The notes beneath the pieces were generated by a model. It was not told where the DNA came from, did no database searches, and saw only the letters and a list, made by a program, of their open reading frames with translations. A DNA stretch of 64,000 nucleotides from Steroidobacteraceae bacterium (GTDB taxonomy: Bacteria > Pseudomonadota > Gammaproteobacteria > Steroidobacterales > Steroidobacteraceae), in assembly GCA_050249415.1 (NCBI GenBank), contig JBFWQO010000003.1:22814-86813 (forward strand), in the 5' to 3' direction. Position 1 is the first letter of the stretch; each line of letters begins with the position of its first letter. Both the position numbers and the translations under genes were made by a program. Positions 51,938 to 55,671 of the stretch are shown here, one piece after another.

Positions 51938-52617
51938 GCGGCGGCCTCCACCAGCGTGCCTTTTTCGAGATGCAGCGTGTGGCTCGCGTGCTGCGCGGCC
52001 TTCGGGTCGTGCGTCACCATGATGATGGTCTTGCCGTGCTCGCGGTTCAGCACCTGCAGCAGCTGCAGCACGTCCTCGGCGGACTGGCGGTCGAGGTCGC
52101 CGGTCGGCTCGTCGCAGACGAGCAGCGCCGGATCGGAGATGATCGCGCGCGCGATCGCGACGCGCTGCTGCTGGCCGCCGGAGAGCTCGGTCGGCTTGTG
52201 CTGCGCGCGATCGGCGAGGTTCACGAGCTGCAGCGCGATGCCGGCATTGCGCTTGCGCTGCGCGGCCGTGAGCTTCGTGAGCAGCAGCGGCACCTCGACA
52301 TTCTTCTGTGCCGACAGCATCGGCAGCAGGTTGTAGAACTGGAAGACGAAGCCGACATGCGTCGCGCGCCATTTCGCGAGCGCCGCCCCGCGCAGCGTAT
52401 CGATGCGCTGCCCCGCGACGCTGATGCTGCCGCTCGTCGGCGAATCGAGGCCGCCGATCAGGTTGAGGAGCGTCGTCTTGCCCGACCCTGAAGGGCCCAT
52501 CAACGCGAGGAAATCGCCCGCCTGGATATCGAGGCTGACATGGTGCAGGACTTCGACCGACTGCCGCCCGCGCGAGTAGACCTTGCTCAGGTCGCGGATC
52601 TCCACCAATGCGCTCAT
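51934..52617 (-). CDS. ABC transporter ATP-binding protein (MacB/LolD-type)
   Basis: GPSGSGKTTLLN, LSGGQQQRVAIARA, LLVCDEPTGDLD. Confidence 0.9.
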   Translation of the reverse strand: MSALVEIRDLSKVYSRGRQSVEVLHHVSLDIQAGDFLALMGPSGSGKTTLLNLIGGLDSPTSGSISVAGQRIDTLRGAALAKWRATHVGFVFQFYNLLPMLSAQKNVEVPLLLTKLTAAQRKRNAGIALQLVNLADRAQHKPTELSGGQQQRVAIARAIISDPALLVCDEPTGDLDRQSAEDVLQLLQVLNREHGKTIIMVTHDPKAAQHASHTLHLEKGTLVEAAA

Positions 52618-53852
52618 GTGCCCGCCTCCACGATCCTTGCACCATCGGCCAGGTCTTTGCCCGGCTCACGCACGACCTTCGTGCCGGCTTCGATTCCTTC
52701 GACGAGGGTGAGATCGCCGAACGGCTGCCCCCGTTTCACCTTGCGTGCACGCACGCGCCCGCCCTCGACGACGAACACGACATTCGCGTCCCCGTGCGAC
52801 GTCACGGCACTGGCAGGCACGAGTACACCCGCCGGCGGCGCGACGGTGTCCTGCGGCGCCTCGCCCGCGAGGAACGACACGCGCACGCCCATGTCGGGCA
52901 GGATGCGCGGGTCTTTCCGGTCGAGGCCGATGCGCACTTTCACGGTCGCCTTGCCGCGATCGGCGGTCGGAATGATCGCGATCACGTGCGCCGGAATCGT
53001 CCAGTCCTGGTACGCGTCGAGCACGGCCTCCGCGGGCCCGCCGACGACGACGCGATTGATGTACGCCTCGTTCACGTCGACTTCGACTTCGAGCGAATCC
53101 ATGTCGACGAGCGTGCCGATGCCCGTGCGCGTGAAGCCGCCGCCCGCCGAGAGCGGCGAGACGATCTCGCCGACCTGGGCCGCCTTGGCGATCACGACAC
53201 CGGCGAACGGCGCACGCACCGTCGTGTAGTTCAGCTGCACCCCGGCACTTTCGCGTTGCGCGGCCGCGACGTGCACGGCCCCGCGCTGCGCGGCGAGTTG
53301 CGCCGCGAGCGATTCGACCTGCGTACGCGCACTCTCCACGGCCTGAGCGGCGACGAGCTGGCGCGCGACGAGATCCTGCTGCCGCACGTAGTCGCGCTGT
53401 GCCTGGTCGAGCTCGCTCGAGTATTGCCCCACCCGCGCGCGCGCTTCGGCGAGCTGTGCATCGGCCTGGGCGAGCGCCGCGCGCTGCGAGCGTGACTCGA
53501 GGCGTGCCAGCACCTGGCCGGCCGCGACATGCTCACCTTCCTCGATCAGCACCTCGGTCAGTTTGCCGGTGATCTGCGCAGACACCGTCGCCTGGCGTCG
53601 TGCGGTGACATAGCCGGTCGCCTGCAGCACGGCCGCGGCGCCGGAGCCCTGGGCGGCGGGAGCCGAGGCGACCGCGACCTGAACGGCGACGGGCGCATGG
53701 GCGCTGCGCCACCCCCAGAATGCGCCGGCGGACAGTACGACGACCGCGGCAAGGCCACCGACCAGCCAGTGGCGGCGCGCCGACCCGTCGTCTTCGCTGC
53801 GATCGATGCGCAACTGGCCGAGCAGCTGTCCCTTGTCGCTCGTATCGTTCAT
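52614..53852 (-). CDS. Periplasmic adaptor (HlyD/MacA membrane-fusion family)
   Basis: N-terminal TM, lipoyl/coiled-coil hairpin (long Ala/Gln-rich helices), beta-barrel C-terminal part. First gene of the exporter operon. Confidence 0.85.
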   Translation of the reverse strand: MNDTSDKGQLLGQLRIDRSEDDGSARRHWLVGGLAAVVVLSAGAFWGWRSAHAPVAVQVAVASAPAAQGSGAAAVLQATGYVTARRQATVSAQITGKLTEVLIEEGEHVAAGQVLARLESRSQRAALAQADAQLAEARARVGQYSSELDQAQRDYVRQQDLVARQLVAAQAVESARTQVESLAAQLAAQRGAVHVAAAQRESAGVQLNYTTVRAPFAGVVIAKAAQVGEIVSPLSAGGGFTRTGIGTLVDMDSLEVEVDVNEAYINRVVVGGPAEAVLDAYQDWTIPAHVIAIIPTADRGKATVKVRIGLDRKDPRILPDMGVRVSFLAGEAPQDTVAPPAGVLVPASAVTSHGDANVVFVVEGGRVRARKVKRGQPFGDLTLVEGIEAGTKVVREPGKDLADGARIVEAGT

Positions 53853-53903
53853 GTTAAATGTTATATATTAATGTCTTACGAACTATTATTCATGCTTTAC
53901 TTG

Positions 53904-53987
53904 TGCCCCAGGCCGGACTCGAACCGGCACGACCTCGCGGTCAACGGATTTTAAGTCCGTAGCGTCTACCGATTTCGCCACCGGGGC
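53904..53987 (-). tRNA. leuZ: tRNA-Leu (anticodon UAA)
   Basis: The reverse complement folds as a class II tRNA. Acceptor GCCCCGG/CTGGGGC, D-arm GCGAAATCGGTAGACGC, anticodon stem-loop ACGGA-CTTAAAA-TCCGT, long variable arm, T-arm GCCGGTTCGAGTCCGGC. CCA is not encoded. Confidence 0.9.
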
Positions 53988-54032
53988 ATGGATGCACCAA
54001 GGACGGGCCGCCGCACATTATGCCGACAGGCG

Positions 54033-54106
54033 TGGAGGCTAGGGTCGGAATCGAACCGGCGTACACGGCTTTGCAGGCCGCTGCATGACCACTCTGCCAC
54101 CTAGCC
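54033..54106 (-). tRNA. cysT: tRNA-Cys (anticodon GCA)
   Basis: The reverse complement is GGCTAGGTGGCAGAGTGGTCATGCAGCGGCCTGCAAAGCCGTGTACGCCGGTTCGATTCCGACCCTAGCCTCCA. Anticodon loop CTGCAAA. CCA is encoded. Confidence 0.92.
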
Positions 54107-54124
54107 GGCGGACCCGAACGAGAC

Positions 54125-54142
54125 TGGAGCGGGAAACGAGAC
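54125..54142 (-). repeat. Orphan 18-nt copy of the 3' end of tRNA-Gly(GCC); att-type boundary repeat of the ICE
   Basis: The minus strand reads GTCTCGTTTCCCGCTCCA, which equals the last 18 nt of E. coli-type tRNA-Gly(GCC) (...GAGTTCGAGTCTCGTTTCCCGCTCCA). The bases 5' of it (CCTAGTAAAC) do not continue a tRNA. It lies 18 nt upstream of the tRNA-Cys 5' end. Confidence 0.8.
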
Positions 54143-54210
54143 GTTTACTAGGCGCGTAAGTCGTTGTTTCCCAAACAATTTCTTCGCCGAGGTGACCAGC
54201 GAAGACCTCA

Positions 54211-54239
54211 ATTGTAGCCTTGTTTTTCGTCCCCGGCAA
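54211..54239 (-). promoter_or_regulatory. Candidate sigma70 promoter facing outward from the ICE end toward tRNA-Cys/tRNA-Leu
   Basis: The minus strand reads TTGCCG-N17-TACAAT (-35 at 54239-54234, -10 at 54216-54211). About 60 nt inside the att repeat and about 100 nt upstream of the tRNA-Cys 5' end. Confidence 0.4.
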
Positions 54240-54245
54240 CAAGTT

Positions 54246-54275
54246 CGTCCAAAGAAATCCATCGACGTCCAAAGA
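54246..54275. repeat. Two direct copies of CGTCCAAAGA spaced 20 bp, just upstream of the outward promoter
   Basis: Copies at 54246-54255 and 54266-54275. The spacing equals two helical turns. Confidence 0.5.
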
Positions 54276-54915
54276 CGCACACTCCGCGCACCAGACCCGC
54301 ACCCCGCACATCGCCATCCGCGTGGACTCGAACTAGCCCCCCATATCCCGTTCTCTGCTTCCGCATCTTCACCGCGATGCCGACTAGGCAGCAGGCTTCC
54401 GATGTCGGGGCGATTCGAATGCCACCGTGGAAAGGTGCGCACCGCGCATCGCGGCGCCCATCTGCGCAAGCCACGCCGGAAGAACGCACACCCTAGCCAT
54501 GGTGCGTGGACGCGATTCTTTATGGATATATCAGCATGCCAGGATGAGCATGACAGGCGCGGATTCGGTGCGTCCGGCTGGACGTTGGATGACGATTGCC
54601 CTCCCCTTCGCACCCCTTGAGACCGTTGGCATATCAGGCCATACCCAGACGGTTTTGCAGAGGCCGCAAATTCTTACGACCCTGATAGCGAGAGCGTCAC
54701 TGTCGAGCCTGCGTCCTGATGCTCGGTCTTCTAGTCGATGAATTTTTACACATCGAGCACACGACGGCTACCAGTAGCGCCGACTGGTAAGAGGTACTCA
54801 AGCCCAATGACGAAGCCGCCCTCGGGGCTCGCGTCCTGCACAGACAACACGCCGATCATGAGGTCGGCGGCAAAGGAGTCGGCCATGTAGTTCTTGTCCT
54901 GGAAGGAGACGGAGC

Positions 54916-55671
54916 ATGCACGAGAACAAGAATGATGCACCCACATCAAAGGTGTTCTATCGCCCGATCGAAGCGTCCATCCGCTGGGCCGGGCTGCTGC
55001 GGTACGAGCAGGCGATCCTGGCCTCGATTTCGTCGCCCCGGAACCTGCCACTTTCGCTGGACTGCCCACGCTGGGGCGAACTGCGGCTGTACACCGAACG
55101 CATCTATGACGGCATTCTCAATGGGGAACTGCCATTCGGGCGGGACGGCATCACGACGCACGACACCGAACTGATCGACTCTCTCGATCTCACCGTCCGC
55201 CATGTCGATCTGAAGCGCTGGATGCGCCAGCACTACCCCGAACAGCGTCCAGGCTTTCTCTTCTCCCGCAGCGAGCGCATCACCCATCCCTTCATCTCGC
55301 TGGAGACCGGGCAAGCCATGCTGGTTGAACAGCTCGCCCTGAAATCCGCCTTGGAGCAGTCCAAGCGCCAACTTCGCGAGCTGCAGGACAAGCACGACGC
55401 GCTGCTCAAGCAGTCCACGGTGATTCCCGCCTGCGCGCAGTGCCCAATCAGCGATCGGGCCGAGGCCACCTACCTGAACATCATCGGGGGCATGCTGGAG
55501 TTGATGCTCGGCCAGTCGCCCTCGGGTGCGCCGTACTCCAGCTTCGAGACGCAAGAGGCCGTAGTCAGCGCACTGGTCGCCCATCACCACGGCGTCATGG
55601 GGATCGCCGAGCGGACATTGAACGGCAAGTTCGCCACGGCCCGGCGCCGGCTGCATAGCGCCACCCTCTGA
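54916..55671 (+). CDS. Outermost ICE gene, 251-aa protein of unknown fold; positional equivalent of the ICEclc regulator BisR
   Basis: Clean ATG ORF with a central coiled-coil-like segment (QLALKSALEQSKRQLRELQDKHDALLKQ). First gene inside the ICE end, immediately upstream of alpA. BisR equivalence rests on position and size only. Confidence 0.5.
   Translation: MHENKNDAPTSKVFYRPIEASIRWAGLLRYEQAILASISSPRNLPLSLDCPRWGELRLYTERIYDGILNGELPFGRDGITTHDTELIDSLDLTVRHVDLKRWMRQHYPEQRPGFLFSRSERITHPFISLETGQAMLVEQLALKSALEQSKRQLRELQDKHDALLKQSTVIPACAQCPISDRAEATYLNIIGGMLELMLGQSPSGAPYSSFETQEAVVSALVAHHHGVMGIAERTLNGKFATARRRLHSATL

Follow-up and report, generated by a model that had tools for sequence, protein, structure and literature searches.

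The outward Pcirc-type promoter of an ICEclc-family element as the probable promoter of two stranded single-copy tRNA genes

Insertion of mobile DNA into a tRNA gene is usually called harmless, since the tRNA is rebuilt, a view that overlooks the genes standing behind the tRNA in the same operon. The E. coli-type glyW-cysT-leuZ tRNA operon lies downstream of pgsA, and the genus of the host described here shares this order, with pgsA, tRNA-Gly(GCC), tRNA-Cys and tRNA-Leu(UAA) and a single promoter in front of the three tRNA genes. Unlike the E. coli-type operon, however, the operon of the present host is interrupted behind tRNA-Gly by a 91.5-kb stretch of mobile DNA, an integrative and conjugative element (ICE) of the ICEclc family. 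What, then, transcribes the tRNA genes on the far side of the element? An earlier note on this DNA proposed that a promoter resembling Pcirc of ICEclc points out of the ICE end and reads into them. Here, we describe a computational analysis of this locus in a 64-kb window (G000:C3:22814-86813; "the window" denotes this whole stretch of DNA). We present evidence that the promoter corresponds to ICEclc Pcirc and that, from a start at about 54204, it probably replaces the native promoter for tRNA-Cys and tRNA-Leu(UAA).

A tRNA operon divided by an integrative element

The insertion target of the 91.5-kb element is the only tRNA-Gly(GCC) gene of the genome. The integrase-distal end of the ICE is marked by an 18-bp att repeat, TGGAGCGGGAAACGAGAC (54125-54142), which is an orphan copy of the tRNA-Gly(GCC) 3' end. 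The same sequence recurs 91.5 kb away, with one mismatch, as the tRNA-Gly(GCC) gene's own 3' end; base 2 of the repeat is the ICE-type T at 54125-54142 and the host-type C inside the live tRNA-Gly. At that far end, a gene for a 647-aa integrase lies next to tRNA-Gly, starting at L002:1274 on the minus strand and reading inward, its start 226 nt from the att repeat. At the near end the gene order is a 251-aa gene homologous to bisR, ParA, a long ParB-like gene, a DUF2857 protein, ssb and topB, all reading inward. Throughout the last 9 kb of the ICE (bisR to topB) every gene with an assigned function has this direction, a statement that covers the function-assigned ICE genes and leaves aside long overlapping minus-strand open reading frames. 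When the two host flanks are joined, they reproduce almost base for base the uninterrupted site of a same-genus relative, in which pgsA, a promoter, tRNA-Gly, an 18-nt gap, tRNA-Cys and tRNA-Leu follow one another; the close relatives of the host, checked for carriage of the element, lack it.

Both arms of the element also hold an 11-mer, GTAAGTCGTTG, at 54156-54166 of the window (plus strand) and at L002:1459-1469 (minus strand). The two copies are inverted relative to the att core, 13 nt from it in the distal arm and 31 nt in the integrase arm. Relatives retain the 11-mer, a possible site for a recombination protein.

The first host gene outside the element is tRNA-Cys(GCA) (54033-54106, minus strand), and the last gene of the split operon is tRNA-Leu(UAA) (53903-53987, minus strand), both called by ARAGORN and by the Rfam tRNA model. 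The gap between the ICE and tRNA-Cys is 36 nt and that between tRNA-Cys and tRNA-Leu 45 nt, all on the same strand. Directly upstream of tRNA-Cys is the native 18-nt spacer between tRNA-Gly and tRNA-Cys (54107-54124, minus strand), identical in the uninterrupted site of relatives and, as the earlier note had held, too short to contain a promoter. Single genes for tRNA-Cys and tRNA-Leu(UAA), and a single genuine one for tRNA-Gly(GCC), are present in the 98.5%-complete assembly; an assembly gap might conceal another tRNA-Cys. Three additional ARAGORN calls of tRNA-Gly(GCC), each 90-94 nt long (G000:C2:109745-109834, C4:126648-126741 and C14:88156-88248), are GC-rich, lack the att 18-mer and were rejected as false positives.

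In same-genus relatives, tRNA-Gly is followed after a gap of 18-19 nt by tRNA-Cys, mostly with tRNA-Leu close behind, and a conserved TTGACT-16-TACAAT promoter is present upstream of tRNA-Gly only. In the present host this native promoter now lies 91.5 kb from tRNA-Cys and tRNA-Leu, with a terminator behind tRNA-Gly. As the occupied tRNA-Gly(GCC) gene is the sole one and heads the gly-cys-leu operon, a promoter at its outer end would replace the native one for two single-copy tRNA genes.

The terminator, an intrinsic one, is the hairpin GGAGC-UUCG-GCUCC followed by six U residues (G000:C3:168356-168375, equivalent to L002:1433-1452, minus strand; outside the window). It stands about 45 nt beyond the regenerated tRNA-Gly, just within the integrase end, and has a fold z-score of -7.45. 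All 50 of 50 distinct relatives keep it, in three stem versions that are always complementary and always followed by T6. Transcription from the native promoter through tRNA-Gly is expected to stop there, short of the integrase gene. The inserted DNA thus carries its own terminator for the first part of the split operon and its own promoter for the second, which together would make the insertion transcriptionally self-contained.

The outward promoter and its kinship with ICEclc Pcirc

A consensus scan of 53600-55200 yields exactly one sigma-70-like site, TTGCCG-17-TACAAT (54239-54211, minus strand), the same outward-facing site that the earlier note had picked out. Its -35 hexamer, TTGCCG, occupies 54234-54239 and its -10 hexamer, TACAAT, 54211-54216, both on the minus strand, so placing the promoter 69-97 nt inside the integrase-distal end. 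From the predicted start at about 54204 we measured 61 nt to the att repeat (54142-54125) and 97 nt to tRNA-Cys (54106), close to the original estimates of about 60 and 100 nt. With 9 of 12 consensus matches the site is not significant alone, 0.5 sites being obtained from shuffled sequences. When the scan was relaxed, 54107-54960 yielded just two weaker candidates on the minus strand, and no strong promoter near the tRNAs other than the outward site.

The surrounding DNA has a GC content of 0.56-0.62 over 53850-54900, against 0.65-0.73 on both flanks. Open reading frames of 50-170 aa are present, in GC-rich DNA, within the first ~770 bp of the ICE; a Pfam search of them gave zero matches, and they were consequently treated as spurious. 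The description of this stretch as non-coding and less GC-rich is thus borne out. Immediately upstream of the promoter there are, as previously noticed, two direct repeats, CGTCCAAAGA, which are exact copies spaced 20 bp apart (54246-54255 and 54266-54275) and cover about -42 to -71 relative to the start site. A search with GTCCANAGA found no further sites in the 64-kb window beyond these two. Of the two GTCCAAAGA repeats, the proximal one hardly varies among relatives and the distal one is degenerate. The repeats are a candidate integrase arm site or promoter-upstream element.

Two side observations concern the host side of the junction. A -10-like hexamer, CATAAT (54022-54017, minus strand), lies in the spacer between tRNA-Cys and tRNA-Leu without a good -35 partner; it is kept in the uninterrupted operon of a relative and could act as a weak promoter of tRNA-Leu's own. 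Beyond tRNA-Leu, an AT-rich gap of 50 nt (53853-53902) precedes a gene for an HlyD-family adaptor (52614-53852, minus strand). No terminator was detected in 53853-53902, and transcripts of the tRNA operon, now from the ICE promoter, may run on into the efflux operon.

Sentchilo et al. (2003), as cited in PMC5812530, PMC2892462 and PMC6561031, described Pcirc in ICEclc of Pseudomonas knackmussii B13. Published work on it presents a constitutive, outward-facing promoter whose role is to express the integrase gene in the excised circle; a promoterless reporter placed after attB is switched on by Pcirc, in ICEclc and in P. aeruginosa relatives, and in RNA-seq its transcription does not depend on growth phase. 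To relate the present site to Pcirc, we used the locus of P. xenovorans LB400 (L054), a known ICEclc host, in which ICEclc position 102,843 was set on the outermost repeat base. This locus is colinear with the ICEclc (AJ617740) numbering, and the published bisR promoter hexamers land in it exactly (TTGCAG at 102,305-102,300 and TATTAC at 102,288-102,283). The published Pcirc position, 102,729, is then the first base of the outward -35 hexamer in LB400 and aligns with position 54239 of the window. By this match the TTGCCG-17-TACAAT site is, as judged from position and sequence, the orthologue of ICEclc Pcirc, and the label "Pcirc-like" was right by orthology.

The two promoters share the element family, the integrase-distal location, the distance to the att repeat and orthologous hexamers (TTGGCG-17-TACAAT in the LB400 copy), and both point outward when the element is integrated and toward the integrase gene after circularization. 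In the excised circle of the present element, the geometry would place the promoter opposite the integrase gene across attP, on the same strand. The terminator described above also stands between Pcirc and int in that circle, a position that fits awkwardly with the published boost of the integrase by Pcirc. By analogy with its orthologues, for which the literature documents a start site, constitutive outward activity and expression beyond attB, the site described here would be expected to behave in the same way.

The promoter is well conserved among related elements. In species-representative genomes, 199 relatives of the 251-aa protein were found, and 80 loci were fetched; in 52 of the 80 an att repeat lies 720-1060 bp upstream of the bisR-like gene. 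Alignment of these ends shows that intergenic conservation peaks in the first ~160 nt and is poor in the middle part (54345-54500, identity 0.52-0.70). Across 51 distinct ends the -10 hexamer, the TTG of the -35 hexamer and the 17-nt spacer are kept, with a mean conservation of 0.97 for the hexamers: 49 of the 51 ends have TACAAT and two have TAGAAT, and the -35 hexamer of relatives is TTGGCG, TTGTCG or TTGACG. Two divergent ends (L230 and L239) carry TTGACG-17-TAGAAT within diverged flanks, together with an equivalently placed hairpin that has another sequence. A separate sub-group of twelve loci (L025, L027, L029, L030, L044, L046, L047, L050, L052, L053, L056 and L058) has bisR-like genes about 2.7 kb from a same-strand tRNA-Gly(CCC), and neither a GCC-type att repeat nor the ATTGTAGCC promoter box; its end architecture appears unlike that of the element studied here.

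The same intergenic region was also expected to hold the inward promoter of the 251-aa gene, and a site was found at 54655-54677 (plus strand), composed of TTGCAG (54655-54660) and TCTTAC (54672-54677), which aligns with the RACE-mapped ICEclc bisR promoter TTGCAG/TATTAC. Transcription of the bisR homologue (54916-55671, plus strand), the first gene of the ICE, would then start at about 54690. No Pfam domain was found in the 251-aa protein, and BisR is likewise published as having none. A strongly conserved block, GATTCTTTATGGATATATCAGCATGCC (54510-54540 of the window), stands within the otherwise variable middle part, with about 120 nt between it and the bisR -35 hexamer downstream, and may be a regulator site; in ICEclc, TciR activates bisR.

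The sX8-type leader and the predicted path of transcription

The stretch between the promoter and the host DNA matches a known RNA. The Rfam sX8 model (RF02227) aligns over its full length (1-82 of 82) with 54123-54204 on the minus strand, scoring 89.9 bits against a gathering threshold of 50 (E 1.3e-18). From the predicted start, 7 nt beyond the -10 box, the match runs to 2 nt past the att repeat, and the model also matches the ICEclc end of LB400. The model derives from a transcript mapped by dRNA-seq, and its beginning at 54204 supplies a predicted minus-strand start within 54150-54260, the interval on which the earlier note had staked its proposal.

The RNA, sX8, is known from Xanthomonas campestris pv. 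vesicatoria (Xcv) 85-10, where dRNA-seq revealed it; the library of primary transcripts showed enrichment of its 5' end, and its start site was classed as "orphan" (PMC3300014). The same study reports a "full-length" form of 118 nt and an 82-nt form, with northern bands of 110 and 85 nt, and induction by HrpX (PMC3300014). The only homologues noted were those of LB400, Acidovorax JS42, B. petrii and one further genome, and a gene cluster upstream of sX8 was said to share its "erratic" distribution (PMC3300014). These sX8-bearing genomes are hosts of ICEclc-family elements, a link that was not made in PMC3300014, and our literature search for any paper tying sX8 to ICEclc or Pcirc found none. 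That sX8 is an ICE junction transcript is thus a modestly new point. If sX8 is the Pcirc transcript, the report of HrpX induction would imply that a host virulence regulator acts either on the ICE junction promoter or on the stability of the leader.

The RNA predicted here resembles Xcv sX8 in its full-length match, in the position of its 5' end relative to the -10 box and in its 3' boundary (tRNA-Gly CCA plus 2 nt). Unlike Xcv sX8, described as an orphan small RNA, it reads here as the 5' leader of a tRNA precursor. The northern bands of Xcv reach beyond the att repeat, and the 118-nt form extends 36 nt past the 82-nt end, which shows that transcripts of that organism run into host DNA for 36 nt or more. 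The 82-nt 3' end has neither a U-tract nor terminator features.

Folding predicts two stable hairpins for the sX8-type RNA, and 87% of alignment cells are paired; two-sided changes occur in just 2 pairs and are often matched by shuffled alignments, the 3' strand being the invariant att repeat. The predicted transcript opens with a hairpin, TCTTCGC...GCGAAGA (54181-54205, minus strand), whose stem is conserved and whose loop varies; in divergent relatives the stem is swapped for TTCACTG/CAGTGAA. This hairpin (54205-54181) was flagged as terminator-like; it begins at +1 and its tail, AAUUGUUUGG, is a poor U-tract. We rejected it as a terminator or attenuator, given the missing U-tract and the read-through of the orthologous Pcirc into reporters.

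These features suggest the following sequence of events. In the integrated state, sigma-70 RNA polymerase would fire outward from Pcirc at about 54204, and the transcript would cross the 5' hairpin, the orphan 3' fragment of tRNA-Gly that forms the att repeat and the native 18-nt spacer, and continue into tRNA-Cys(GCA) and then tRNA-Leu(UAA). RNase P would free a leader of about 98 nt, and trimming would leave a stable sX8-type RNA of about 82 nt. In the excised state, the same promoter would face the integrase gene across attP. We infer read-through into these tRNA genes, release of the leader by RNase P and dependence of the host on the promoter from this arrangement. Genome context, together with the published reporter traps, strongly supports the proposal that the promoter transcribes tRNA-Cys and tRNA-Leu(UAA), and compensation for the splitting of the operon is a reasonable reading. 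The further idea that the ICE ties host tRNA supply to itself holds while the element is integrated and lapses after excision, which restores the operon.

Neighbouring genes in other hosts, alternative readings and consequences

The genes found beyond this type of end were counted in 58 species genomes that have it, identified by a scan for the att-end pattern. The first outside gene is a tRNA-Cys in 21 of the 58, co-oriented and at gaps down to 19 nt; tRNA-Glu and tRNA-Gly each occupy this place in four, tRNA-Leu in two, and tRNA-Asp and tRNA-Met in one each, and the remaining ends (25/58) have no tRNA within reach. Wherever a tRNA lies outside, it is co-oriented with the outward promoter. 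The element-adjacent tRNA-Cys was the sole BLAST-detectable copy in four of five hosts checked. In the Pseudomonas model hosts of ICEclc, multi-copy tRNA-Glu/Gly genes or an artificial reporter lie downstream of Pcirc; here, by contrast, the only tRNA-Cys and then the only tRNA-Leu(UAA) of the host stand just outside. The promoters at the ends of insertion sequences and other islands likewise read from a mobile element into flanking host DNA. They differ from the present case in that the ICE has a fixed target, the tRNA-Gly 3' end, making the flanking genes predictable, and in that these genes are in many hosts essential tRNAs instead of accidental neighbours. The islands of B. petrii have been drawn with tRNA-Cys beside their end, its transcription being passed over. 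Our search of the literature on Pcirc or an island promoter rescuing stranded tRNA genes returned nothing, and the papers open to search do not raise dependence of the host on Pcirc as a question. The ICE promoter would appear, from the sequence context, to be the only plausible promoter for the single-copy, essential tRNA-Cys and tRNA-Leu(UAA) genes, and such a sole-promoter role, here and in many other hosts, is likewise modestly new.

The promoter might nevertheless serve only the element, boosting the integrase in the circle and/or producing sX8, with transcripts stopped or cut at the att junction and the tRNAs made from some other, unrecognised start. Such a reading accords with the published role of Pcirc, with the short, discrete sX8 RNAs of Xcv (85 and 110 nt, with no long precursor seen), with the terminator-like hairpin flagged at 54205-54181 and with the finding that the promoter is equally conserved at the roughly 25 of 58 ends that have no downstream tRNA. 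It has to contend, however, with an sX8 3' end devoid of a U-tract and a 118-nt form reaching 36 nt beyond it, with the expression from Pcirc of reporters placed beyond attB, and with the 36 nt between the ICE and tRNA-Cys, which hold no promoter-like site. Being single-copy and indispensable, tRNA-Cys must be transcribed from within the ICE end. We consider purely internal use of the promoter unlikely. Equal conservation in the absence of tRNAs does mean that the integrase role or the attP architecture alone can explain why the promoter is conserved, and its role in tRNA transcription may be a by-product or consequence and not a selected function.

That same attP architecture forms the core of a second alternative, in which the conserved block consists of integrase arm sites, bending-protein sites and inverted repeats, the hexamers being incidental and of little promoter activity in this host. 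An orthologous site that is used experimentally as a constitutive promoter and has a mapped primary 5' end is hard to accommodate here, as are the divergent lineages, which switch to other promoter-like hexamers while their flanks diverge. These points outweigh the conservation of the whole first 160 nt beyond the hexamers, the direct and inverted repeats typical of att arms, the weak covariation support for RNA structure and a consensus match that by itself is not above chance, and we hold this alternative to be very improbable. It is scarcely credible, in turn, that the promoter exists mainly to make sX8 as a regulatory small RNA acting in trans for the element or the host, the kind of role first proposed in Xanthomonas. 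The RNA was catalogued as a small RNA, was reported as HrpX-induced in Xcv (PMC3300014) and forms two stable hairpins, but it has no known target, its 3' half is a tRNA-Gly fragment paired with element sequence and cannot vary, and its distribution follows the ICE and not any host pathway. Outward transcription by Pcirc into tRNA-Cys and tRNA-Leu(UAA) is the reading that we favour.

A broader proposal, to which we assign an even chance, is that the terminator after the regenerated tRNA-Gly and the constitutive promoter with its tRNA-like leader (sX8) form a two-part "operon patch". This patch would let ICEclc-family elements occupy the only tRNA-Gly(GCC) gene at the head of the essential gly-cys-leu operon, place the sole tRNA-Cys supply under an ICE promoter (21/58), and make sX8 a released leader as opposed to a regulatory small RNA. 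If this is true, tRNA-Cys supply could escape the growth-rate and stringent control of the native tRNA promoter; such control may differ between the native promoter and the ICE promoter, whose discriminators are TCCGCCC and TGAGGT, respectively.

In about a third of the sampled related elements, the genes behind the occupied tRNA include tRNA-Cys, as they do here. If the promoter sustains these tRNAs, it would be a determinant of host range and fitness for a very widespread family whose cargo includes degradation, metal-resistance and antibiotic-resistance functions. Carriage of such an element may then alter the levels of tRNA-Cys and tRNA-Leu(UAA) and their growth-rate control, promoter mutations should be counter-selected during integration, and Rfam sX8 would need to be reinterpreted as the junction transcript of ICEclc-family elements.
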